Below the pieces are notes generated by a model. That model searched no databases and had not been told where the DNA came from. It was given only the letters and a program-made list of their open reading frames with translations. From assembly GCA_039588295.1 (NCBI GenBank), contig JBDHAB010000014.1, positions 8,312-72,311 on the forward strand: a stretch of DNA of 64,000 nucleotides, given 5' to 3'. Below, one piece after another: positions 1 to 54,963 of this stretch. The stretch comes from Gemmatimonadota bacterium. GTDB taxonomy: Bacteria > Gemmatimonadota > Gemmatimonadetes > Gemmatimonadales > GWC2-71-9. Numbering within the stretch: position 1 is the stretch's first letter; every line of letters begins with the position of its first letter. The position numbers were made by a program, and so were the translations under genes.

Positions 1-3000
1 GTGATTCCCGTCACCTCCGGACCCACCGAAAAAGATGATGTCGGTCCCGTTACCAGCGTTGTTGGGGGAAGCACCCTCATCAGCGGCGCCGCCGTTGCCT
101 CCAAGGAAGTTGAAGGTTCCTGCAGCACCGCCATCGCCCGTCAGGTTGAGGCCGCCGCTACCGGAGAACAGAAGAAGATCAGCGCCATCGCCACCGTCAA
201 TGACACCGGCTCCAGCGCTTCCGTCAATACCTGAGCCCACAGACACGCTTGCGCCGACGTAAGTGGTACCCGCTCGTCCGCCCACCCCTGCCGTGACGGA
301 TCCAGGCGCGATGCCCACGTCGCCACCAGCCGTTCCAACACCGCCAACGGTCTCGTCACCCGCAACGACGTCTACGGAACCACCAGTTCCGGTACCGAGA
401 TCCTCACCGCGGATCTTGTCGCCATCGGTGAACTCGATATCGTTGCCGTTGGTGATGTCCCCCGCACCGAGAACATCCTCCAAAGGCGAAATGCCACCGC
501 CTCCACCACCAAGCCCGACCACGGAATCGACCACGTCGGCACGCGTGATGATGCTGGAGAAGTAGAAATCCAGCGTTCGAGGCGTCGTAGAAACGGCACT
601 CGCCAACCCGACGAACGGCCGCGTGGCAAGCGATAGATCAGGAAGTACGAACCCTACATCCGGCTCTGTGTGCGTTGCCAGACCGCCATTGGAGATTGTA
701 ACGCCATCGGAGTCGAACACCGTGAAGGTGACATCTCCGCTGGAAGCACTCGCATCGATCTGGAGATAATGAACGAGCCCATCATTGGGGAGGGCAAACA
801 CGTTCACCATCGCCCCACCGGAACCCTGAGCGATAAACTCAAAGGTGACTCCGCCGAGGGACTGGTACAGGCCCATGTATTGCAGTCCGCCCACGGGGGC
901 AGGTGATGCAAGCATCGTGGCGGGGGTCGTCAGAGAGGCATCATCGGTGAACCCGATGAAAATACGTTCATCTGTGTGGGCCGGGGAGGAGCTCTGGAAC
1001 TTGAAAAGAGCCTTGAACTGTTGGTCCCGACTGATCGTCAGATCCGCAGTGGACTCGTATGCCTGCGCTCCAGCGACTGCGCCCAACGACAGAACCAAAA
1101 GAGGACCGTCAGGATCAGTTCCGAACGTGATCGCGCCCGGAGGATCAACGTCGAAGTTGACGGAGCCGCCGTAGACGCCGTAGCTCTCGGGGCCACCAAT
1201 CGGGTTGCCCGGACCCATGAACCCGTAACCGGAAATCAGCAGCGCATCGAGGAACCCGAGACCACCACCGATGGCCGTGGAGAGGTTCAGATCACCACCG
1301 GTGTTCGTGAAGATCAGTTCGCCGGAGTTGTTGACCCAGATGCCGCCTTCGCTGCCCGCTGGCGTGAAAGGCACCACCCCCGAGCTCGACATCAAGAGCC
1401 CAGGCGGATCAATCATGCCGCCGACAGTCAGCTTGCCGCTGATGTCCACATCACCGACGACGAGGAGCTTACCGTCCACCCCGCCGCCGTTACCGATCCC
1501 GAGCGACACGATGAAGCTGCCACCGTCCCCACCACCAGCTCCACCGGCTCCGGTCGTGTACAGAACGCCGCCACCGTTGCCCGTGCCGTCACCAGCACCC
1601 GTGATGACGTTGAAACGACCACCGGCAGCGCCGCTACCGACGCCTCCCGATCCGGTCGTGAAATTAACGGCTCCCGCGAAACTGCCGATGCCGGGGCCGC
1701 TGTCGCCCGCCGTCAAACTCCAGATACCGCCGGAGCCGGTGCCAGCGCCGTCACCCAAGGCGGTGAGGATGCTGCCCCCCGAACCTCCGCCAGGACCGCC
1801 GGGCCCCAGAGTGATGCTCAGGTCCCCACCGTCGCCGGTGCCGGCACCCCCTCCCGTCGCCATGACGAGATTGCCGGCTCCTCCGATGCCCGCTGGATCA
1901 GGCGCGCCACCCGTGAAAAGGATGTCGCCTCCAGCCCCGCCTCCGCCCGTTGAAGTACCGCCCGCGAGGGACAGGTCAACACCCGAGCCTGCACCGCTGT
2001 CGTCACCTTGAATGGTGAGGCCACCCGTTTCGCGGCCAAATCCAAGAACGGATGCGAGGTCTTGGTTTCCTCCACCGCCCCCGATAGCTCCCAGGAGATC
2101 AGCACGCGTGATGCATGTGACCGACCAGATCGACATGAATCGGGCGACCGCATCGCGGGACCTGACGGCAGCCATGTGGCTGAGGAGTGTCGCGGGGGAC
2201 GGCAACTGCGCGTTGAACGTCGTCGCCGCCAGCAAATTCCGATCCACGTCGTACAGACTCAGGGTGATGGCACCAACCACCGTCGAATCGATGTCGATCC
2301 AAAACGCGGTTGATCCCGAGGGAAGGATCCCCGTGTCCACCGTGAGCGGTGCCCCGGACGCGTTGTCCGTGACGAAGTGAAGGTTGATCTGGCCCTGATC
2401 GTCGACGAGCTGGACGCCCACGTAGTCTTCATTCGGCGTCCCAGGGAAAGCGAGCTGATCCGCGAAAGGTGTGCCGCCGCTGGCCGTGGTGAGGCCAGCG
2501 AACATGTTGTAAGCGCCTCCAACCCCCGTCACGAATTTGATGGACGTGAAGTACTTCGAATCGTCGGCTACGGTCGAACCGGTAATCTGCAGCCCCGCAT
2601 CGCTGTCAGCGACTCCTAGCGTGACATAGCTGGCCTGGACACCGTTGAGAGTTGAGACGGTGGTGCCCGGTCCTGGGGAAGGCTCCAGTGGCGGGACAGT
2701 CCCGAAAAAACCTGTGATGTTAGGAAGACCGCCCCCGATGGGAACGGCACCGGTGTCGATGGCCACCCACTGACCGAACTGCATCTGTGCAAAGGCTTCG
2801 GCGAAAGTGCCACCGCCTCCACCACCCCCGGGCTGGAAACTGAGCTGCCCAGCGCCGTTCGTCGTAAGTACCTGGCCGGCGACCCCATCAGCTTCAGGCC
2901 AAAGAAGACCGTCGATGATGACGGCGTTGCCCCCGGCCACGGCGGGGTCGAGAGTCAGATTGCCGTCCGACGTGATCCGGGACCCGAGACTGTCCTCGAC

Positions 3001-39763: not shown

Positions 39764-39928
39764 CTAGCTAAACTGCACGCCAACGGCGTTTTTGGGGTGC
39801 GTGACGGGATTTGAACCCGCGACCTCTGCATTCACAGTGCAGCGCTCTACCTGCCGAGCTCCACGCACCATAGGATGGTGATGGTCTTCGCCCTCAGAGA
39901 GGGGCTCGGTATGGAGTTGCGTCAACAT
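39764..39928 (-). CDS. Putative His/Phe-sensing leader ORF reading through tRNA-His
   Basis: MLTQLHTEPLSEGEDHHHP...QFS*; HHH ends 5 nt before the tRNA-His 5' end. Confidence 0.55.
   Translation of the reverse strand: MLTQLHTEPLSEGEDHHHPMVRGARQVERCTVNAEVAGSNPVTHPKNAVGVQFS
39793..39869 (-). tRNA. tRNA-His(GTG)
   Basis: Cloverleaf with G-1:C73, loop CTGTGAA, CCA. Confidence 0.92.
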
Positions 39929-39947
39929 GGTGAACCTTGAGATGGGC

Positions 39948-39975
39948 AGAATACTCGTGTGAGACGCCCTGTCAA
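39948..39975 (-). promoter_or_regulatory. Sigma70-like promoter of the His/Phe tRNA unit
   Basis: TTGACA-16 nt-TATTCT. Confidence 0.6.
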
Positions 39976-45064: not shown

Positions 45065-46957
45065 TCATGCCCATGCGGGCTTCTGGAGAAGCTCCGTTTG
45101 AAGGATTTGGTCCACGAGCGTCACACGAGGGCGCGCGCGACCAGCCACCGCTTCCCCAACCGGGGTTGCAGCGATCAGAGCCCGAATCGTCCGAGTGATC
45201 GCGTAGGGATCCTCGAAGGTACGGTCATCGAGCATGAGGCACGGGATACCGAGCCGGTTGGCCGTCTCTCGCACCGCGGTGCTGTTGTCCGCGCCATAGT
45301 GACGCGCACGCCAACCCGCGGCTCCCCCGAACGCAACCGTCTTGAGGAACCCGAAAGCGACCGGGCGCAGGCCCGAAGCCTCGACGGCCGTGTGGAAGGG
45401 ACGTGCCTCCTCATCACCAATGAAGATGATCAGAGAGTCCTCGTCATCCGCGGGCTTGTACTTCTGGAGCACACGGATCCCGGCACCGTAGTCAGTACCA
45501 CCGCCAGCGCCGATGCCACGGAAAGCCGCCTCCACACCCTTCGTCGAAGCGTGCTTGATGGTGACCTCCCGACCGTTCGTGTTGAACACGGCGACCTTCA
45601 CCTGGTCGAGCGGGAACGACTGGAGGAACTTGGCGATCAGAGGCTTTGCAGCATCCAGAGCACCCTGCATCGACCCCGAGATATCCACGAGGAACTTGAT
45701 CGACAAGCCACGGATGGTCTCCTCGACCACCTTCTGAGCCACCTTGTCGGCACCCTCCTCCATCGTCTCCTGGAGCTCCTTGGACCGAACGTTGCGGGCG
45801 ATGTTAGCCGCACGCATGTCGTCCGCCTTGGCGAGAGCCGCAGCGTGGCGCTCCTTGATTTCCTGGATCTTGAACAGGCCCAGGTCCTCCAGGGTCGGAG
45901 TCATGATGATGATGTCCTTGTCCGAAAGGGACCCGGCCTCGATGGCCGCAACCATCACTGCACGAGTGACTCCCACCTTCGGAGGAAGGAGACCCACGAT
46001 CCGCTTCCAGTTCGGCTTGGTCTTCTCGATGAGCTGGCAGATAGCCGCCTCGTTGAGATCGTCCCACGACTCGGCAGCCTTGACCGCCTTACCGATCGCC
46101 ATGCCACGCCGGCCGTCGTCGGCCTGCTTCTGCTTCCAGCGCAGAGCCTCGAAGAACTTGTCCGAGGTCGGCTTGTAGCCGATACGCCGAGCCATGGTCA
46201 TGACCGTGGTACGGAACCCGGCCTTGACGAGACCCTCCAGCATCTTGGGGTTCTCCTCACGGAACCGAAGCCACTTCTCGATGGCCTTGGGCCATCGACC
46301 GAGGAACGGACGCTTGGCCGACTTGCCGAAGCCGAGCTCGCGGTTGATCTCCGCGATCTCGGGCAGCATGAGCACGTCGTAGATCCGAAGCAGGAGCTTC
46401 GGGTTCAGATCCTTGCCCTTCTCCTGGAGAAGAAGCATGGCCTCACCGACGTTCCGGTAGTCGTCATCGTCGAACAGGTGCTCACCGCCGTCCATGACGG
46501 GGTCCCCCTTCCGAGACTGAACCAGAAGGAACGCAGCGAGCACGACCTTGAGGTCACGGTGCTCCTGACGGAAGGCGAACGAAGCCCACTTCGCAGCGAA
46601 CTCGTTGTCCATCTTCCAGACCTCAGCGACCTGCTTGTAGAACCACACCGCGACCTCGGGGAACAGACCGCTCTTGCGGTACAGCCCCACCTCGTTACGG
46701 CCGTTCCGAACGGTGTTGTCGCCGTTCATCGTGCCGATCTCGGTACGAACGTTCTTCTTCCCCGCCTTGCTGAGACGGAACACCTTCTTGACGCCGTCCG
46801 CCTCCTTGTGCGTGACGGGATCCCACCGCACGCCAATAGTGGCACGCGCGTCGGGAACCACAACGCCAGGGCGGTTGTGAACCATGTGATCTGAGTACGC
46901 CAGGAGAGACTGGATGATGGTCTCAGCGGGCCCGAGGTTTTCCTTGTTGTTCTCCAT
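45065..46957 (-). CDS. Ro60/TROVE-like helical protein with C-terminal vWA domain
   Basis: MIDAS DISGSM, GGGTDY, IFIGDEE after a long basic helical region; flanked by tRNA-mimic RNAs. The vWA call is solid, the TROVE call is inferred. Confidence 0.7.
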   Translation of the reverse strand: MENNKENLGPAETIIQSLLAYSDHMVHNRPGVVVPDARATIGVRWDPVTHKEADGVKKVFRLSKAGKKNVRTEIGTMNGDNTVRNGRNEVGLYRKSGLFPEVAVWFYKQVAEVWKMDNEFAAKWASFAFRQEHRDLKVVLAAFLLVQSRKGDPVMDGGEHLFDDDDYRNVGEAMLLLQEKGKDLNPKLLLRIYDVLMLPEIAEINRELGFGKSAKRPFLGRWPKAIEKWLRFREENPKMLEGLVKAGFRTTVMTMARRIGYKPTSDKFFEALRWKQKQADDGRRGMAIGKAVKAAESWDDLNEAAICQLIEKTKPNWKRIVGLLPPKVGVTRAVMVAAIEAGSLSDKDIIIMTPTLEDLGLFKIQEIKERHAAALAKADDMRAANIARNVRSKELQETMEEGADKVAQKVVEETIRGLSIKFLVDISGSMQGALDAAKPLIAKFLQSFPLDQVKVAVFNTNGREVTIKHASTKGVEAAFRGIGAGGGTDYGAGIRVLQKYKPADDEDSLIIFIGDEEARPFHTAVEASGLRPVAFGFLKTVAFGGAAGWRARHYGADNSTAVRETANRLGIPCLMLDDRTFEDPYAITRTIRALIAATPVGEAVAGRARPRVTLVDQILQTELLQKPAWA

Positions 46958-47100
46958 GGTGTCTCTTCCTCTCTAGTTTCGTGAAAAGTCGGGGCTGGCC
47001 CTTGTACCCCTGAGTTACGTGAAAATATGGGCCTTGCACGAAAGAGCCAAGGAACCTCAACTTTCCGGCCTTTTTGACCGGGCGCCGTTGATCCTTAGCT

Positions 47101-47177
47101 TGGTTGCGACGGTGGGAATCGAACCCACGACCTCTCCCTTATGAGGGGAATGCTCTGCCGGACTGAGCTACGTCGCA
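47101..47177 (-). tRNA. tRNA-CAT (Met or Ile2)
   Basis: Cloverleaf, CTCATAA, CCA. Confidence 0.88.
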
Positions 47178-47234
47178 AAAATGCCCGTTGCTGCACTGCG
47201 CTCGACTGGTACGGGCGGCCCGTCGAACTGAAAA

Positions 47235-47312
47235 TGGTAGCGGGTCTCGGATTTGAACCGAGGTCTCGGGATTATGAGCCCCGCGGGGACAACCGGACTC
47301 CCCCAACCCGCA
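47235..47312 (-). tRNA. tRNA-fMet-like (CAT)
   Basis: Unpaired 1:72, G-rich anticodon stem, CCA. Confidence 0.85.
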
Positions 47313-47465
47313 AAATTTAGTGAACCTGTGACAGCGTGAGGTTCTTGCGCCCACGGATGCGGCGAAGTGCTCGACTAGGGCTCTGCTTTTTCCCGAGTCC
47401 TAGTTGAGCTCGGACGAGCTGTTCGAGACGGAGGAACTCGTCCTCCGTCAGCTCGTCCTCCGTCG

Positions 47466-47501
47466 TTAGTAGATCTTGAAAACTTCGTTCGTCATCCCCA
47501 T
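47466..47501 (-). CDS. Putative leader peptide MGMTNEVFKIY upstream of the Met tRNAs
   Basis: GAGG SD; followed by alternative hairpins. Confidence 0.4.
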   Translation of the reverse strand: MGMTNEVFKIY

Positions 47502-47521
47502 CGTGTCGTCCTCGACTTTCT

Positions 47522-47599
47522 TGGTGGACGTAGGTGGATTTGAACCACCGACCTTCCGCTTATCAGGCGGCTGCACCGACCAGGCTGTGCTACACGTCC
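47522..47599 (-). tRNA. tRNA-Ile(GAT)
   Basis: Cloverleaf, CTGATAA, CCA. Confidence 0.9.
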
Positions 47600-47603
47600 T
47601 CGG

Positions 47604-47677
47604 TCGGCCTGGAAGGAGTTGAACCTTCGACCTCGCACTTATCAGGCGCGCGCTCTAACCAACTGAGCTACAGACCG
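47604..47677 (-). tRNA. tRNA-Ile(GAT)
   Basis: Cloverleaf, CTGATAA, followed by CCG rather than CCA. Confidence 0.9.
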
Positions 47678-47720
47678 AGTAGATAATCGGTCCAATGTCA
47701 CTCTCGTCTTCGTTTTCCAT
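47655..47720 (-). CDS. Ile-containing leader ORF reading into tRNA-Ile
   Basis: AAGAAAGGAGCAG SD; MENEDESDIGPIIYSVCSSVG*. Confidence 0.6.
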   Translation of the reverse strand: MENEDESDIGPIIYSVCSSVG

Positions 47721-47751
47721 CTCGGTCTGCTCCTTTCTTGGTTGATGTTCT

Positions 47752-47826
47752 TGGTAGCCTCGGACGGGATTGAACCGACGACCTTCACCGTGTCGAGGTG
47801 CTGCTCTGCCACTGAGCTACGAGGCT
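47752..47826 (-). tRNA. tRNA-Val(GAC)
   Basis: Cloverleaf, loop TCGACAC, CCA. Confidence 0.85.
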
Positions 47827-47831
47827 GTGTT

Positions 47832-47905
47832 TGGTACCGAGTGAAGGACTCGAACCTTCGCTTCCATCGTGTGAAAATGGCACTCTACCTCTGAGTTAAC
47901 CCGGC
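47832..47905 (-). tRNA. tRNA-Val(CAC)
   Basis: Cloverleaf, loop TTCACAC, CCA. Confidence 0.88.
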
Positions 47906-48571
47906 ATAGTTTTTGAGTTGGTCCATCCATCCTTCGATGCGAGCTCGGAAAAGTGTGTCGTGAACCGCGACCTCCAAACACCCGTAGGGATGCCCTTTCC
48001 GTTTTCCTTTGTTGGTTTTGTTCAAATTCTTCGTGGCCTTGATCTTGGAAGACGCCACTCCAGACACCCGGCTCCAGTACCGTTTAGCTTTGCTACCGTC
48101 CAGCGACGGGTGCAGACGAACCCGCAGTCTAATTTTGTCTTCGGGGACCTCACACTCCTCCCGTAGAAACTGGAGCACGAATCGAATCATGTCCGGGTCC
48201 GTGTTGCTGATTGAAAACGAGTTCCTTTCCTTTTTACCTTCACCCCAGTAGAGCGCAGCCATCACTCCCCGGAGGGTGCGACTGGAAAGGTCAACGGGAA
48301 TTTCCCTTCGACCTCGTACCCGAGCCTCTTCTCGTTTCTTGGCCCAGATTTGCTTAGGGGAGTTGGGGTGGGATGCTGCGGCGATGCGTCCTTTCAGACG
48401 CCCTTGTTCCTCCTTGTCTCGTAGTTGTTCGACCTGTTGCTTGGTAAGGGGGATGTCTCGGGTCCAACGACTGATTGAACTTTTGGCGCATCCCGTGTGA
48501 TTGGCGATCTCGGTGAGGGACTGTCCCTGACGACGCAGGTCTCTTGCTTCTTCTCGTTGATCAGGCTTCAC
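47885..48571 (-). CDS. HTH plus LAGLIDADG-like endonuclease
   Basis: SLTEIANHTGCAKSSISRW (HTH); ALYWGEG, FSISNTDPDMI..V..FL, YWS. Confidence 0.7.
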   Translation of the reverse strand: MKPDQREEARDLRRQGQSLTEIANHTGCAKSSISRWTRDIPLTKQQVEQLRDKEEQGRLKGRIAAASHPNSPKQIWAKKREEARVRGRREIPVDLSSRTLRGVMAALYWGEGKKERNSFSISNTDPDMIRFVLQFLREECEVPEDKIRLRVRLHPSLDGSKAKRYWSRVSGVASSKIKATKNLNKTNKGKRKGHPYGCLEVAVHDTLFRARIEGWMDQLKNYAGLTQR

Positions 48572-48634
48572 CGTTTCAGTATGGCAGAAATGGAACCGAC
48601 GGCCAAGGTGTCCTGTGCGGACCAGTGTAAAAAG

Positions 48635-48710
48635 CGGGGCGTACGGGATTTGAACCCGTGACCTCCTACGTGACAGGCAGGCGTCCTAAGCCAGACTAGA
48701 CCAACACCCC
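48635..48710 (-). tRNA. tRNA-Asp(GTC)
   Basis: Cloverleaf, CTGTCAC, G73, no encoded CCA. Confidence 0.9.
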
Positions 48711-48841
48711 ATGTTGGCGGAGCAGACGAGAATCGAACTCGCAACCTTCGGACAGACAATCCGTTGCGCTACCAATTGCGCCACTGCTCCGTACATATCG
48801 TCGGTATCGTCCGCATCATCGCTTTCGCTGTTGGTGTTCAT
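48686..48841 (-). CDS. Asp-rich leader ORF reading through tRNA-Asp
   Basis: AAGAAAGGAGCAG SD; MNTNSESDDADDTDDMY then enters the tRNA. Confidence 0.65.
   Translation of the reverse strand: MNTNSESDDADDTDDMYGAVAQLVAQRIVCPKVASSILVCSANMGCWSSLA
48715..48790 (-). tRNA. tRNA-Asp(GTC), variant loop
   Basis: Loop TTGTCTG, G73, CCA. Confidence 0.85.
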
Positions 48842-49083
48842 CGTGCTGCTCCTTTCTTGGGGTGAGTGGGTGTCTGGAAAGTTCGGCTGTTTGATCCCAC
48901 AGGCCGTCCGGTCGCCTGCTGTATCGCCCCTCGGTGCGGTGCGCTGTCGTGCACCTCGCTTCATCGAGGCGCGTTAGGATGGGATGGAAAAGTTGAGGCT
49001 TTTGTGTCTACCGGTCAGCCTCGGTGGCCGGCCATCACGGATCCTTGATCAGGGGACAACCTGGGACAGGATTGGAAAAGTTA

Positions 49084-49235
49084 GGGATGCAGGTGAGTGT
49101 GCAAGGTGGGTGTGCAGTCATTTGACCACTCCGGCATAAATGGAGCCGGAGCCTGGATTCGAACCAGGAGTCTTCTGTGAATGAAACAGATGTCTTTACC
49201 TTTTGCTTGTGACCTTAAACGGGGACCTGCGTCCC
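49084..49235 (-). ncRNA. Circularly permuted tRNA-mimic RNA F (opened in the D-loop)
   Basis: GGGACGCAGGT/ACCTGCATCCC; CACAAGCA, 3' half of D-arm, TCTGT-TTCATTC-ACAGA, T-arm, CTCCGGC-TCCATTTAT-GCCGGAG, 5' half of D-arm. Confidence 0.8.
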
Positions 49236-49275
49236 GGAGCCCACGGAGGGATTCGAACCCTCGACCTCAGACGTA
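49236..49275 (-). pseudogene. Isolated tRNA 3'-half fragment
   Basis: GAGGTC-GAGGG-TTCGAAT-CCCTC-CGTGGGCTCC with no 5' half. Confidence 0.6.
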
Positions 49276-49278
49276 CGG

Positions 49279-49353
49279 AGCCCGCGAGAGGATTCGAACC
49301 TCCGACTCCCTCATTACGAATGAGGTGCTCTAGCCGGACTGAGCTACACGGGC
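49279..49353 (-). tRNA. tRNA-Thr(CGT)
   Basis: Cloverleaf, TTCGTAA. Confidence 0.9.
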
Positions 49354-49390
49354 GATTGATGTTGGTGTTCTCCTGTTGAAGTGAAGTGCT

Positions 49391-49464
49391 TGGAGCTGGC
49401 GGTGAGAATCGAACTCACGTCTTCGGGTTACAAATCCGGAGCTCTGCCATTGAGCTACGCCAGC
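49391..49464 (-). tRNA. tRNA-Thr(TGT)
   Basis: Cloverleaf, TTTGTAA, CCA. Confidence 0.9.
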
Positions 49465-49563
49465 GATAAGGCCGGCGTGGCCAGTCCGTGTCGAGCAACC
49501 CTTCCGGGCTCCCCGGCGGGTTTCTTCACTCAGTTGGAGTTCGGTAAATCCGCCGGGAAATGC

Positions 49564-49659
49564 TCAACACGGGGTCATATCGCCCATAATGGGCAATACG
49601 ACGGCCACGACGACCAGATTGGTCGTTGTCGTGGCTGTGTATGTCGTGGAGCGTTTCAT
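49564..49659 (-). CDS. thrL-like leader peptide heading the tRNA operon
   Basis: MKRSTTYTATTTTNLVVVAVVLPIMGDMTPC*; the stop lies in the 5' strand of a long hairpin. Confidence 0.7.
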   Translation of the reverse strand: MKRSTTYTATTTTNLVVVAVVLPIMGDMTPC

Positions 49660-49707
49660 GGCGAAAAATCCGAAGCCGCTTTCCTGCCAAGGGAGGCGAC
49701 CTGTCCA

Positions 49708-49736
49708 GGTGTACGCGCGCTTCGACGGGCTGTCAA
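49708..49736 (-). promoter_or_regulatory. Sigma70-like promoter of the Thr-Asp-Val-Ile-Met tRNA unit
   Basis: TTGACA-17 nt-TACACC. Confidence 0.55.
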
Positions 49737-49760
49737 GCACCCTTGTTCACTTTTTTTGAA

Positions 49761-50540
49761 TCACCATCGCCACACGAACTCGTCGAGCCACTGCTTGCGG
49801 CTCTCGTCGTCGAGCGCGAGGAAAGCCTGCTCCTCCGCCATCATCTCCACGTTGAAAGCGTCGGCAATCTTGCGGTGTGCGGTGCCGGGGTCGAACGCCC
49901 AAGGCTGCCAGGGGTAGTGGGCCCCCAGGCGATACTGGTTCTCCACCTCGATGATGCAGTCGATCCACGGCTTCATAGACGCCCACGTCATCGTCTCACG
50001 GTCCATCTCGCGCTTGGCGAACTCCTGCCGGTGCAGGAGCTTGAGCGGGAGCGGGCTGTGCCCGAGGTTGTCGTTGATGGAACGCCCCGCGATGACGATG
50101 TTCGACTGGCCGTTACCGAGGCCGTTGTTGCGCTCGCATACGAGATGCTCCCGAGAGCACTCCCACGGAACGTAGTAGTGAAGAGCAATCCGGAGGTCCG
50201 TAGGGACGAGGTACATCTGGACGCCCGTGTACCAACATCGCTGGGGGAGGCCCGCATCGAGGCCGAACCGCTTAGCCATCTTCACCGAGACCCAGTCCCG
50301 GTTTTTATTGCGCTTTGCGATCTCGTCGTAGTGCATCCACACGAGCTCGGGGTCGTGCTGATCGCCCCCGGTCATCACCAGGAGCTCCCGGTCAGCGTAC
50401 TTCTTGTAGCGAAGGAGGCGTCCGGTCTCGGGGTCAACACGGTTTAACGCGGCAACGCGCATCCGCTCTTGAAATTCGGGATCGTGTTTCCCTTTCCACT
50501 CGCGGAGCTTATCCCGGTTCTTTCGACCGTGACGGCCCAT
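49761..50540 (-). CDS. HNH-like protein
   Basis: CWYTG...SREHL...NIV....IN pattern. Confidence 0.55.
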   Translation of the reverse strand: MGRHGRKNRDKLREWKGKHDPEFQERMRVAALNRVDPETGRLLRYKKYADRELLVMTGGDQHDPELVWMHYDEIAKRNKNRDWVSVKMAKRFGLDAGLPQRCWYTGVQMYLVPTDLRIALHYYVPWECSREHLVCERNNGLGNGQSNIVIAGRSINDNLGHSPLPLKLLHRQEFAKREMDRETMTWASMKPWIDCIIEVENQYRLGAHYPWQPWAFDPGTAHRKIADAFNVEMMAEEQAFLALDDESRKQWLDEFVWRW

Positions 50541-51817
50541 CAGTGTCGGGGAACATTCCCGGGGTCGACAGCGATCTTCGCCACGATCCTCTTGCACTCG
50601 GAACACGAAACCGTGAGGGCTCCGTTCTCGTAGGAGCACCAGGTGGGGGCACCGATGTGGCACTGGGGATGCAGGAACATCTCGGTGCTGTGGCTCTTGT
50701 GGTCACACCCCTCCACGGCGCACGTCATACCGTCGAGCGTCACCTGGGTCAGCGGCGGGAGGTTTTTGCGGCGCCCATTCTCCGCCTCGACCACTTCCTC
50801 GTCGTCCCCCTCGTGGTCATGGCTCCCATGCTTGTGGGACAGTATCGGCCCCAACGCCGGATAGAATTTCATGGCGTCGTTGGGCATCTGCGGAAACCCA
50901 GAGACCTGACCGTCACCGATCTCCATGATGATCCACTCGCCGTCTGCCGTCTGTGCGAGGTCCATGGAGAAGAACTGGCTGTCCACCTTCGCCGCCAGCG
51001 CGCCGAGAGTTTCGAACGAAGGGAGATCCTCGATGGATTTCGGGGCCGAAAAACTGCGAGGCATACTCTCCTCCCAACCACCGTCGGGCTCCGGGACCTC
51101 GTGGGTGACACGCTCGTAGGCGTCCTCGTCCCAGTACTCGCTGATGTTGATGCTGTGTCCGTTGAGCCAGAAGATTCGGAACTCCTCCGACATCGGCATC
51201 CCCGACTGAGGATGCTTGCCGATGGATTTGAGCGGCACGAACTGACGCAGGATCACACCCCCCTGGAGATCGTCACCCTGGCGCTCCAGGAAATTCGAGA
51301 TCACGGTCTGGGCCTTCTCCATGTTGGGGATGAAGCACGCCTCCTCCCACTCGTGTTTCCTACTTTTCACGTAGTCCTTGATGAGGATGCCGTGCTCGTA
51401 ACGACCGAGCATCTCCTGGGCAGTACGGAGGATCCTCTCGACACTGATCTCATGCTTCTGGATGATTGCGGAGTCGGGCGTCGAATCGACGAGATCGAGG
51501 TACCAACCGGGGAACTCGTGAGCCTTCCGATACTGGTGGGGGGTGTTGATGAGGTCCACCAGGCAAACCTGGAGCTTCTCGTAGAGCTTCTCGTACTGAT
51601 CGGACGTGAGCATCCACCCCCGGTAGATAGCCGGTGTGGGCTCCTCGAAATCAGGGACGTACTTCACGGCCGCTGCCGCATCGTCGTCGTTGACCAGGGA
51701 CTCCCAGTGCACGAAAGCGACCTGATAGCCACACTGCTTGGCGATGTCGGCTTCGGTGGCCCAATCTGGGTCGGGTTTTTTGGGCTCGAAGGGATCGGAT
51801 GGGAACAGGACGAGCAT
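50540..51817 (-). CDS. ATP-grasp protein (R2K clade) with C-terminal Cys/His domain
   Basis: YRGWML, KDYVKSRKHEW, EFRIF, FFSMD...EIGDGQVSG. Confidence 0.8.
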   Translation of the reverse strand: MLVLFPSDPFEPKKPDPDWATEADIAKQCGYQVAFVHWESLVNDDDAAAAVKYVPDFEEPTPAIYRGWMLTSDQYEKLYEKLQVCLVDLINTPHQYRKAHEFPGWYLDLVDSTPDSAIIQKHEISVERILRTAQEMLGRYEHGILIKDYVKSRKHEWEEACFIPNMEKAQTVISNFLERQGDDLQGGVILRQFVPLKSIGKHPQSGMPMSEEFRIFWLNGHSINISEYWDEDAYERVTHEVPEPDGGWEESMPRSFSAPKSIEDLPSFETLGALAAKVDSQFFSMDLAQTADGEWIIMEIGDGQVSGFPQMPNDAMKFYPALGPILSHKHGSHDHEGDDEEVVEAENGRRKNLPPLTQVTLDGMTCAVEGCDHKSHSTEMFLHPQCHIGAPTWCSYENGALTVSCSECKRIVAKIAVDPGNVPRH

Positions 51818-51852
51818 TACCTCGATTTTACCCCTATCGGGCCCCGTATCTG

Positions 51853-52869
51853 ATGGCACACGTCCATAAAGCACTCATTGTCCTGCTGTTTGCGCCTGCG
51901 TGCGACAAACAGGCTGACGACTCCGCAGCCAAGACTGATCCCGCTGCGAAGCTGGATGTCGGCGCAAAGCTCGATGTCGGGACCCCTGGGACGCACACGG
52001 TCAACTTCGTCAACCAGTGCTCCAGTGACATCTGGGTTGGATCAGTCGGCAATACCGGGTTCAGCGGTCTCAACAACGGCGGTTGGCAGATGGGAGCCAA
52101 GGGCTCCGGCACCGACAAGACCACCCTCCAAGTTGAAGTGGGATGGAGCGGTCGTTTCTGGCCACGTACCGGGTGCACGTTCAACGATAAGGACCTCTGC
52201 GACGGGTTCACGCCCTGCTGCACGAGTGGCTCTTGTCTGACTGCGGACAACAAAACCTTCGGCCTGGAGTGCGCATATTCTGGGAAAGCCCCGGTGGGGA
52301 TCGGCGAGTTCACGTTCGACGCCGCTGGAGGTCTCGGCCCCTATGACACCTACGATGTGAGCTTCGTTGATGGATGGGGGGAGTCCCTCTCTGTCGTGGC
52401 TGTGGCCGGCACCTTCAACCCGAAACCAGACCCAGGGTTGAAAGCTCCTTGGTGCACGGTGTCAGGATGCACTTCGGCGCCGACGTGTCCGAAGGGGCTC
52501 AGTGCCGGTGGCGATAGCTGCTGGAGCCCCTGTCAGAACGCGGTCAACAGCGGGGACCCCGATAGCACGCAGGCGAAACTCTGCTGCTCGTGCTCAATGA
52601 CGAGTCCCATCACCTGCGGAGAGGCCACATGCGCTGGCGGCTACGGCTGCTCTCCCTACACGCAACCTCCGTGGCCGGCGGACCAGGTGTGCAATCCCTG
52701 GAACACGGACAAGAGCCGAGCGTGGGACACCACGAGCCAGGACTACATCGCCAACGTCCACAAAACGTGCCCCGGGGTCTACGCCTGGCAGTTCGATGAT
52801 GTCAACGGAACGTACAACTGCCGCAAGACCAACGGCCTCGTGGACTACACCGTCACCTTCTGCCCGTAG
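51853..52869 (+). CDS. Thaumatin-like (PR-5 family) lipoprotein
   Basis: Lipobox-like FAPAC; NQC...IW, WSGRFWPRTGC, EFT, YDVSFVDG, C.SPC, CPGVYAWQFDD, YTVTFCP. Confidence 0.92.
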   Translation: MAHVHKALIVLLFAPACDKQADDSAAKTDPAAKLDVGAKLDVGTPGTHTVNFVNQCSSDIWVGSVGNTGFSGLNNGGWQMGAKGSGTDKTTLQVEVGWSGRFWPRTGCTFNDKDLCDGFTPCCTSGSCLTADNKTFGLECAYSGKAPVGIGEFTFDAAGGLGPYDTYDVSFVDGWGESLSVVAVAGTFNPKPDPGLKAPWCTVSGCTSAPTCPKGLSAGGDSCWSPCQNAVNSGDPDSTQAKLCCSCSMTSPITCGEATCAGGYGCSPYTQPPWPADQVCNPWNTDKSRAWDTTSQDYIANVHKTCPGVYAWQFDDVNGTYNCRKTNGLVDYTVTFCP

Positions 52870-54312: not shown

Positions 54313-54576
54313 ATGTCCAAGAGAGCTCTACGTCGTCATCACCGTGAGCGCATGCTTCAGCACTGCGCTCGCATCCTCAAGATCCGTTGGGACGAGTCAC
54401 TCGCCACCGGGGACATCACCTTCGATGACATCGAGCGGTGGTCTCGGCTTCGTCGGGACAACTTCTCGTTCTGTTCCTGCTGGATGTGCTGCAACCCGCG
54501 GCGCCTTCGGAACTCGAACGGTCCTTCACGCACCGTGCAGGAACTCCGGGCGATGCAGGAGGTGGATGATGAGTAG
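54313..54576 (+). CDS. Small basic Zn-binding protein, paralog 1
   Basis: RALRRHH...CSCWMCCNPRR...RTVQE. Confidence 0.7.
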   Translation: MSKRALRRHHRERMLQHCARILKIRWDESLATGDITFDDIERWSRLRRDNFSFCSCWMCCNPRRLRNSNGPSRTVQELRAMQEVDDE

Positions 54577-54835
54577 GGCACTACGCCGACACCACCGGCA
54601 ACGGATGGTGAACAGGGCTCGTGCGCTCTTCCGACGGTGGGGGGACACCGAGGAGAGGATCCGACACACGGCGCCTCGACTCGCGGACAACCTCTGCTGG
54701 TGCTCGTGCTACTCGTGCGGCAACCCGCGACGCCACTTTGGGTTCTGCATCTACGGCAAGACCAACAGTGTCCGAACCCGACAAGAGGTTTTCGCTGACC
54801 TCCAACTCCAAGAACAACTCGAAGAAATTGAATGA
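54569..54835 (+). CDS. Small basic Zn-binding protein, paralog 2
   Basis: RALRRHH...CSCYSCGNPRR...RTRQE; GGAGG SD. Confidence 0.7.
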   Translation: MSRALRRHHRQRMVNRARALFRRWGDTEERIRHTAPRLADNLCWCSCYSCGNPRRHFGFCIYGKTNSVRTRQEVFADLQLQEQLEEIE

Positions 54836-54840
54836 CTCGC

Positions 54841-54869
54841 TTGACACGAACGTCGAGCACGACTACAAC
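54841..54869 (+). promoter_or_regulatory. Sigma70-like promoter of the Lys tRNA/release-factor unit
   Basis: TTGACA-17 nt-TACAAC. Confidence 0.6.
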
Positions 54870-54878
54870 GGCAAGACC

Positions 54879-54911
54879 ATGTTCTGCATGAAACGCAAGA
54901 CCAAGCTGTAG
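54879..54911 (+). CDS. Lys-rich leader peptide MFCMKRKTKL
   Basis: AAA/AAG/AAG codons; the stop overlaps the base of hairpin 54911-54944. Confidence 0.55.
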   Translation: MFCMKRKTKL

Positions 54912-54963
54912 CCCGAGGGGACGGACGCAATCCGCCTCTTGGGCGTCGATAGCGTTTATCCCC

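Follow-up and report, generated by a model that had tools for sequence, protein, structure and literature searches.

The window, by which we mean the whole stretch of 64,000 nucleotides analysed here, carries on its minus strand a block of tRNA genes headed by a predicted promoter and a structured leader with a short open reading frame (ORF). The elements of this locus are as follows.

49731..49736, minus strand: -35 box TTGACA of a predicted sigma70-type promoter; TTGAC stands at the same spacing in 20/20 homologues
49708..49713, minus strand: -10 box TACACC, at a 17-nt spacer; conserved in homologues
49675..49700, minus strand: 5' hairpin P0, which contains an invariant 11-mer (49693-49683)
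49564..49659, minus strand: leader ORF of 31 codons, MKRSTTYTATTTTNLVVVAVVLPIMGDMTPC*; ATG and stop are 90 or 93 nt apart in 20/20 homologues
49645..49663, minus strand: segment 1 (start region), predicted to pair with segment 2 in ribosome-free nascent RNA, where it can mask the start codon
49642..49647, minus strand: codons Thr5-Thr6 (ACG/ACA, ACA), immediately 5' of hairpin 1; invariant in 20/20
49604..49635, minus strand: hairpin 1, Thr run with Val run; its 3' strand (49614-49603) can pair with segment X instead
49575..49601, minus strand: hairpin 2, codons 20-28; two-sided changes in 3 of 10 pairs, 92.5% of cells paired
49487..49571, minus strand: hairpin 3, segment 2 (49571-49551, across the stop codon) with segment 3 (49518-49487)
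49471..49482, minus strand: segment X, predicted to pair with nt 1-11 of tRNA-Thr or with the Val-run strand
49391..49464, minus strand: tRNA-Thr(TGT), the first gene and proposed switch output; the first downstream tRNA wherever sequence is available
47101..49353, minus strand: remaining block (putative), with Thr(CGT), Asp(GTC) x2, an HTH-containing ORF, Val(CAC), Val(GAC), Ile(GAT) x2 and Met-type(CAT) x2

A preliminary description had placed a thrL-like, multi-amino-acid attenuator at 49487..49736. The element is there, but it runs on through 49471 into the first 11 nt of tRNA-Thr. Its attenuator-like features, namely a conserved and very probably translated leader ORF, cognate codons and competing RNA folds, are borne out, whereas segment X and the sister leaders of Lys and His blocks had been missed. 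Our translation of 49659-49564 (minus strand) gives the same peptide as before. The Thr codons read, in order, ACG ACA ACA ACG ACA ACG ACC, with a second ACC at codon 29, and the Val codons GTC GTC GTG GTC GTA; counting thus confirms the earlier statements that six of the first seven Thr codons are ACG or ACA and that most Val codons (four of the five) are GTC or GTG. The proposed correspondence of leader codons to the tRNA types behind them is likewise upheld, as the downstream tRNAs on the same strand are Thr, Asp, Val, Ile and Met-type, and it extends to the tRNA blocks of related phages.

The window lies on a 72-kb contig (C14) of a 4.5-Mb bin. The GC content of this contig is 0.604, compared with about 0.64 in the other large contigs of the bin, 19 of the bin's 68 tRNA calls sit on it, and its genes encode an endolysin-like protein, an RNA ligase and a release-factor-like protein. 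A 630-aa VWA protein encoded there shares 76% identity with proteins of two IMG/VR records of 619 and 497 kb, which are rated 92% and 94% complete. The leader is absent from 60 genomes related to the bin, in which matches were tRNA-sized only, and this is consistent with a phage contig having been placed in the bin. The window is thus very probably a megaphage fragment misplaced in a bacterial bin.

Several other features of the window merit description in their own right. It lacks a tRNA for the leader's two ACC codons, and right after Thr(CGT) there is a duplicated tRNA 3' half (49280-49240, minus strand) at the site of an intact Thr(GGT) in homologues. The 228-aa HTH-containing ORF between the Asp and Val tRNAs (48571-47885, minus strand), missing there in most homologues, is possibly a homing-endonuclease-like mobile gene. 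At 49215-49110 (minus strand) lies a tRNA-like element of permuted order, with an anticodon-like arm, a T arm, a loop-closed acceptor-like stem and a D-arm-like piece; it has a partial tRNA match only in Rfam (22.9 bits), and we take its layout to resemble that of Y RNA (YrlA). An array of odd tRNA-like units with long anticodon-arm insertions spans 41700-40954 (minus strand) and repeats the motif CTCACAAGCAA, which is present three times exactly in the array and once, nearly identical, at 49213, a number no higher than chance allows when one mismatch is permitted; a weak YrlA match (23 bits, E 0.086) falls at 41067-40954, and a similar array is found in the phage locus L127. The VWA protein (46957-45065, minus strand) has 1,442 relatives among 8,000 scored and adjoins tRNA arrays in many jumbo phages; it gave no TROVE/Ro60 match in Pfam or PDB, but might still be distantly Ro60-like in function, next to units that resemble Y RNA. 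Two further tRNA-like genes, at 39707-39633 and 39114-39021 (minus strand), score 53 and 33 bits with Rfam and were missed by ARAGORN; the second, with an extended D arm and an anticodon loop that suggests CTA, is a possible amber suppressor. Genes of the thaumatin family (51799-52869, plus strand) and the Bax-inhibitor-1 family (29716-28970, minus strand) are unusual in a phage.

Homologous leaders were collected by several routes. Within viral sequences, two of nine matches to a hairpin pattern were true homologues, as were two of 24 and two of five in other pattern scans, and the true matches of the three scans were the same two contigs each time. A search for neighbours of the VWA protein, blind to the leader, returned 39 loci, six of which (five distinct) have the leader, the remaining ones having tRNA arrays in another order or none. 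A first VWA-protein scan had led to three distant phages with tRNA arrays lacking the leader, all three GTDB pattern matches were chance hits with neither ORF nor tRNA, and the upstream 300-aa ORF used as a query found no locus. A 19-base pattern around the stop codon yielded 25 metagenome matches, all true, one of which ends before the ATG and another before the tRNA; since the pattern includes the stop codon, its conservation in these matches holds by construction, while the ATG and the frame are independent of it. De-duplication left 20 distinct full leaders with pairwise identities of 55-99.6%, and their mutual relatedness means that p-values computed across them are overstated. Wherever downstream sequence exists, the leader (20/20) stands immediately upstream of tRNA-Thr(TGT). 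Next come Thr(CGT) and, with few exceptions of which the window is one, Thr(GGT), then Asp and Val, in many cases with Ile and Met as well. Among the public runs listed as containing the leader none was of RNA; four of them, of DNA or unstated type, supplied only additional leader variants, and the leader peptide had no match in PHROG. The first tRNA-Thr of one homologue (L089) is interrupted in its anticodon arm by about 600 nt (about 2917-2300, minus strand), possibly a self-splicing intron.

Conservation across these leaders suggests that the ORF is read by ribosomes. The promoter boxes are kept as TTGAC-N18-TA in 20/20 homologues, though they fail a consensus scan of the window, and the P0 11-mer is likewise invariant, with an inner 3-bp stem that never varies and an outer stem that is 72% paired. 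The flanks vary in length (six lengths of 32-72 nt before the ATG and 13 lengths of 81-114 nt after the stop), yet 14 leaders have 93 nt between ATG and stop and the other six 90 nt. Indels within the ORF come in threes, the flanks differing by single bases; among the 12 of 33 indels listed, the sole one inside the ORF measures 3 nt, and in L052 a codon-sized insertion follows the ATG with the stop still in frame. Thr occupies codons 5 and 6 in all 20, just 5' of hairpin 1, and ACA, the codon read by the first tRNA of the block, accounts for 59 of the 163 Thr codons in the leader ORFs, against about 4% in 12 long ORFs of the window. The peptides contain T, V, D and an internal M in 20/20 and I in 18/20. 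The Val run itself is not conserved, L052 and L087 having only two Val residues (L087 reads TAGGMFASVIV instead), and its replacement in several homologues indicates that base pairing to the Thr run accounts for it in part.

The same data could be read as an untranslated structured RNA, such as a processing signal, a protein-binding site or a small RNA, with the peptide arising as a by-product of ACG/CGT-repeat hairpins. No Shine-Dalgarno site is evident upstream of the leader ATG and pairing constrains a large part of the ORF, both of which speak against translation; the Val run would follow from pairing with the Thr run, and the invariant 5' 11-mer could bind a protein. This reading, however, does not account for ORF lengths that change in threes next to flanks that differ by single bases, or for the matching in-frame mini-ORFs that recur ahead of unrelated blocks, and we consider it highly improbable. 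The leader ORF is very probably translated.

Those mini-ORFs, which provide the strongest evidence, were found in 14 regions comprising most other tRNA blocks of the two near-complete phages, among the tRNA matches listed. Most tRNA blocks in the 619- and 497-kb phages have a TTGAC-type promoter followed by a mini-ORF written in the block's own codons: MALWLQQQQI* and MRRQQDQT* precede Gln blocks, MFVMKRKHKL* precedes the Lys block in relatives, a His run precedes His/Phe, and Glu/Asn-rich, Pro/Arg/Leu-rich and Arg/Ser/Gly/Ala/Trp/Cys-rich mini-ORFs each precede their own block. The match reaches individual codons, as AGG closes the mini-ORF ahead of a tRNA-Arg(CCT) block, the counterpart ahead of Arg(CCG) and Val(GAC) contains a Val run and has CGG as its last codon, and TTA/TTG codons stand before Leu(TAA/CAA). 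Two sister leaders are present in the window.

54841..54963, plus strand: Lys-block sister leader, promoter at 54841, ORF 54879-54911 (MFCMKRKTKL*); 6 homologues
39869..39975, minus strand: His/Phe-block sister leader, promoter at 39975, ORF from 39928, His-His-His at 39883-39875

In the Lys leader a long stem is predicted to capture nt 1-4 and the D-arm strand of tRNA-Lys. In the His leader the His-His-His region pairs with the 5' end of tRNA-His in a fold that is not significant against shuffles (z -1.0), and the His run is in frame in 4/5 homologues, one of which requires GTG as start codon, and out of frame in L054. Immediately ahead of the Lys promoter (54313-54835, plus strand) sit two small ORFs in tandem, both rich in Arg and Cys and alike at their starts, and the Leu/Tyr tRNA block of the 497-kb phage encloses what appears, by eye, to be an EF-Tu gene (L052, about 850-2050, plus strand).

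When leaders were assigned to blocks at codon level, the true pairing was the best of 362,880 for nine blocks in one genome (G061) and the best of 40,320 for eight blocks in the other (G062). In this test starts were hand-set for the Gln and Leu leaders of G061 and the His and Ile2/Val/Arg leaders of G062, the Ile/Met tRNAs 5.8 kb downstream in G061 were assigned to the Thr block, and blocks with no evident leader (L118, L122 Asn, the L127 Ala/Met group and window 41524-40718) were left out. The CAT tRNA heading the Ile2/Val/Arg block of G062 and its G061 counterpart we took to be an AUA-reading Ile tRNA, in keeping also with a conserved ATA codon. A more mechanical test used seven leaders per genome. 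Five of them were defined by always taking the first ATG behind the promoter; for Thr we used the start given by the alignment, and for His a manually chosen one. The true pairing again ranked best of 5,040 in both genomes, even though the rule took the wrong frame for one Gln leader. Cognate codons are more frequent in the ATG frame than in either other frame in 20/20 leaders compared, which form about nine families and are not independent. Judged by these codon matches, the Thr leader appears to be one of a genome-wide set of codon-matched leaders in these phages, and it is likely to be a codon sensor.

How such sensing could be converted into an output is suggested by the competing helices of the leader. 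The whole leader fold has a z of -6.43, with 0/200 shuffles equally stable. The earlier description had recognised the pairing of the Thr run with the Val run, which corresponds to hairpin 1 (49635-49604), and had placed the stop codon in a long hairpin, which is hairpin 3 (49571-49487, z -6.46). Scored over the 20 aligned rows, the ground-state fold (P0, hairpins 1-3 and X:tRNA) has 87.5% of cells paired, compared with 35-49% in slid controls, and two-sided changes in 10 of 58 pairs, mainly in hairpins 1 and 2 (hairpin 1: 5 of 12); hairpin 3 has one-sided changes only. RNAalifold on the automatic alignment found the start:stop helix, whereas misaligned columns kept it from detecting hairpin 1 and the outer stem of hairpin 3. 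This start:stop duplex (segments 1:2), which excludes hairpin 3, reaches -16 to -21 kcal/mol and is significant against shuffles in 20/20 (p<=0.027); its 16 pairs are 94% paired with zero two-sided changes. In the folding model it forms in short ribosome-free transcripts, hairpin 3 prevailing later in most rows. An invariant 5' loop that reads the tRNA 3' end in T-box fashion and a 4-bp pseudoknot over the start codon were also considered and dropped for want of covariation.

Segment X has two complementarities. Against shuffles it pairs better with the Val-run strand in 14/20 leaders and with the tRNA 5' end in 13/20 (p<=0.05), and when X is slid along the leader, its best window overlaps the 3' strand of hairpin 1 in 17/20. 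Two-sided changes affect 3 of 7 pairs of the X:Val-run helix and just 1 of 7 of the X:tRNA helix. The anti-acceptor hairpin of X with nt 1-11 of tRNA-Thr is predicted at -18.2 kcal/mol in the window, where it is not significant by dinucleotide shuffle (z -1.71, 13/200), and it is weak in 7/20 leaders (L087, 089, 092, 094, 102, 104, 107). For capture of tRNA nt 1-7, medians for leaders are -8.8 (n=20) and -7.2 (n=19) and those for controls -5.2 (n=38), -4.6 (n=57) and -3.8 (n=239), with broad overlap between leaders and controls, 63% of the bin's tRNAs also reaching -5.

Folding under a simulated ribosome had been proposed as a check. We modelled the ribosome as a 28-nt mask, with equilibrium folding that excludes tertiary structure and kinetics. 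A mask at codons 6-11 moves X to the Val strand clearly in the window and in L050, L086, L088, L106 and L087, but the shift is small or absent in six others (L051, L093, L095, L100, L102, L104). The median cost of forming the acceptor stem is 0 with the ribosome at codon 10, 2.5 at the stop and 3.6 with no ribosome. Taking the best of codons 6, 8 and 10, this cost is lower than at the stop in 14/19, equal in four and higher in one, whereas for codons 17, 20 and 24 it is lower in 10, equal in three and higher in six; choosing the best of three positions biases both tallies towards 'lower', and L089 is outside them because its tRNA has an insertion. Sensing of several amino acids alike is only partly supported: the residues present in the peptides favour it, but the Val run is unconserved and in part the pairing partner of the Thr run, and sensing of Val, Ile, Met and Asp is less well supported than that of Thr. 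For Lys, His and Arg, the modelled partner strand of the tRNA 5' end is located in or next to the cognate codons near the end of the leader, and masking these codons sets the tRNA free; the models of the Gln, Glu and Pro leaders gave no tRNA release with cognate codons masked. The stall row of the L055 His leader is outside this comparison.

Given these alternatives, we propose a model in which the host ribosome would translate the leader ORF and thereby set the fold of the first tRNA. In the OFF state, when the ribosome passes quickly over the Thr codons, the rare ACA in particular, or when the ORF is untranslated, hairpin 1 would occupy the Val-run strand and X would lie on nt 1-11 of tRNA-Thr, so that no cloverleaf forms. 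When charged or intact tRNA-Thr is scarce, a ribosome delayed at about codons 5-12 would open hairpin 1, and the Val-run strand, once free, would take X across hairpins 2 and 3, allowing the tRNA to fold (ON). The least certain step follows: a folded first tRNA might be cut by RNase P and the transcript survive or continue, while a misfolded one might stay unprocessed and be Rho-terminated or degraded, and control would in this way reach the Asp, Val, Ile and Met tRNAs. Capture of one tRNA alone does not explain control of the whole block. With no U-tract terminator and no phage Rho, the switch would have to be read by host RNase P, Rho or decay. There is a precedent in a mouse tRNA, for which PMC8915964 reports that alternative folds of the precursor resist RNase P. 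As a caution, PMC1262725 describes ilvB regulation in Streptomyces coelicolor as unaffected by mutating candidate regulatory codons. On the modelled folds, the chances that the output is the folding of the first tRNA, followed by lost processing or Rho termination, seem evenly balanced, and the explanation as a whole, a ribosome-read sensor of phage tRNA supply in which the first tRNA is part of the switch, is in our judgement about as likely to be right as wrong.

The same codon sensor could instead act through hairpin 3, with transcription termination, not tRNA folding, as its output. Segments 1:2 would pair when no ribosome is loaded and 2:3 while the ribosome precedes about codon 27, and a ribosome at the stop would expose segment 3 together with C-rich RNA, on which Rho or a terminator lacking U could act, so that any stall, at Thr, Val, Ile, Met or Asp, would give read-through. 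The universally significant 1:2 duplex fits this scheme, as does the behaviour of hairpin 3 under the mask, which keeps 18-21 pairs in 19/20 leaders with the ribosome at codon 6 and collapses to 0-3 pairs with one at the stop. It also accounts for the invariant start and stop regions and for T, V, M and D in 20/20, would explain multi-amino-acid sensing better, and agrees with a C-rich start region (C 21-28 vs G 9-14 per 60 nt in 20/20, in a stretch that is short, partly paired and without a control set) and with Glu leaders of similar repeat layout. However, neither a fourth conserved segment nor a terminator hairpin could be identified. In line with the earlier remark that no U-tract terminator is evident, no terminator-like site was detected on the minus strand from 49736 to the tRNA, and only 3/20 leaders have an 8-nt window with six T, the other 17 having at most four. 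Moreover, the 1:2 helix shows no two-sided change, the C-rich stretch is short, a Rho RNA-binding domain was found in neither of the two phage records (0/2; it is present in the bin, G000, which is not necessarily the host), and the dual complementarity of X stays unexplained. We regard termination set by hairpin 3 as rather unlikely to be the sole output, although the start:stop region and hairpin 3 could form a second layer in which late-codon stalls may count too, and the hairpin-3 and tRNA-fold layers may act together.

Translation might also serve merely as a constitutive folding aid or timer, with no graded response to tRNA supply or one of opposite sign, the passing ribosome preventing the trapping of the tRNA or shielding the non-coding transcript from Rho. 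In most of the Lys and Arg leaders the 5' end of the tRNA comes free with a ribosome at or near the stop, an effect that simple translation would have too, and the modelled energy differences are small (only 1-4 kcal/mol). Yet such an aid gives no account of block-specific codons, rare ones included, standing in frame, and we think it improbable.

Compared with known systems, the proposed sensor of tRNA supply combines features of several classes. In E. coli, thrL, ilvL, hisL and pheM are leader-peptide transcription attenuators of amino-acid operons, and actinobacterial trp and leuS examples appear in PMC1262725. Like these, the phage leader has a short ORF of cognate codons right after the promoter, with several amino acids per leader. 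Its helices are predicted to compete according to ribosome position; they covary in part, and the modelled switch is clear or weak depending on the homologue. Unlike the thrL type, it precedes phage tRNA genes, not biosynthetic or synthetase genes, it has no GC hairpin with a U-tract, the regulated tRNA is itself a pairing partner, and its preference for rare codons points to isoacceptor supply. The kinship with enterobacterial thrL proposed earlier does not survive, as no Rfam Thr leader family match was obtained over 46900-49900 up to E 10 or at the gathering score; with no terminator, no Rfam match and tRNA targets, the leader falls outside that type. Leader peptides can also work with no intrinsic terminator, as in E. 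coli tnaC, which uses Rho. The same was proposed for actinobacterial cys leaders (PMC1262725). The phage leader resembles tnaC and the cys leaders in its cognate-codon ORF, C-rich leader and lack of a U-tract terminator, but differs in its conserved alternative helices that reach into the tRNA. In the LEU element upstream of actinobacterial leuA, a regulatory codon run pairs with the Shine-Dalgarno box, the target being translation initiation of a protein gene, and the authors doubt attenuation there (PMC1262725). The His and Lys leader codon regions similarly pair with a downstream functional site, here the tRNA 5' end, although the target in phage leaders is a tRNA acceptor stem. T-box riboswitches sense the state of a tRNA through leader RNA, using a Stem I specifier loop and a T-box antiterminator. 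We propose that tRNA state is likewise sensed through leader RNA here, yet the sensing appears to be mediated by translation, and the T-box models of Rfam gave no match in the window. A full-text search for T-boxes ahead of tRNA genes returned no paper. Among the main texts of open-access papers searched, judged at abstract level, none described leader-peptide control of tRNA genes. The folding of a tRNA as a regulatory output was not found in that literature and is possibly a new output type.

The reasons for which large phages carry near-complete tRNA sets, and the occasions on which these are used, are an open question; one current view is that phage tRNAs stand in for those that host defences destroy (PMC12409363). 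With codon-specific sensors ahead of its tRNA blocks, a phage would have supply on demand, and the sorting of tRNAs into blocks by amino acid would find an explanation. More tentatively, since we hold it to be somewhat short of an even chance, these leaders could constitute a genome-wide feedback on the tRNA pool, with tRNA folding gated by the ribosome: every leader would hold the first acceptor strand until a ribosome waiting for that tRNA frees it, with RNase P as the reader and no terminator. In that case the tRNA would be signal and switch output at once, and the phage would replace exactly those isoacceptors lost to starvation or to tRNA-cutting defences of the host. The 270-nt leader with one tRNA is a compact test bed, and if its output is tRNA folding and not termination, it could act as a reporter of isoacceptor shortage.
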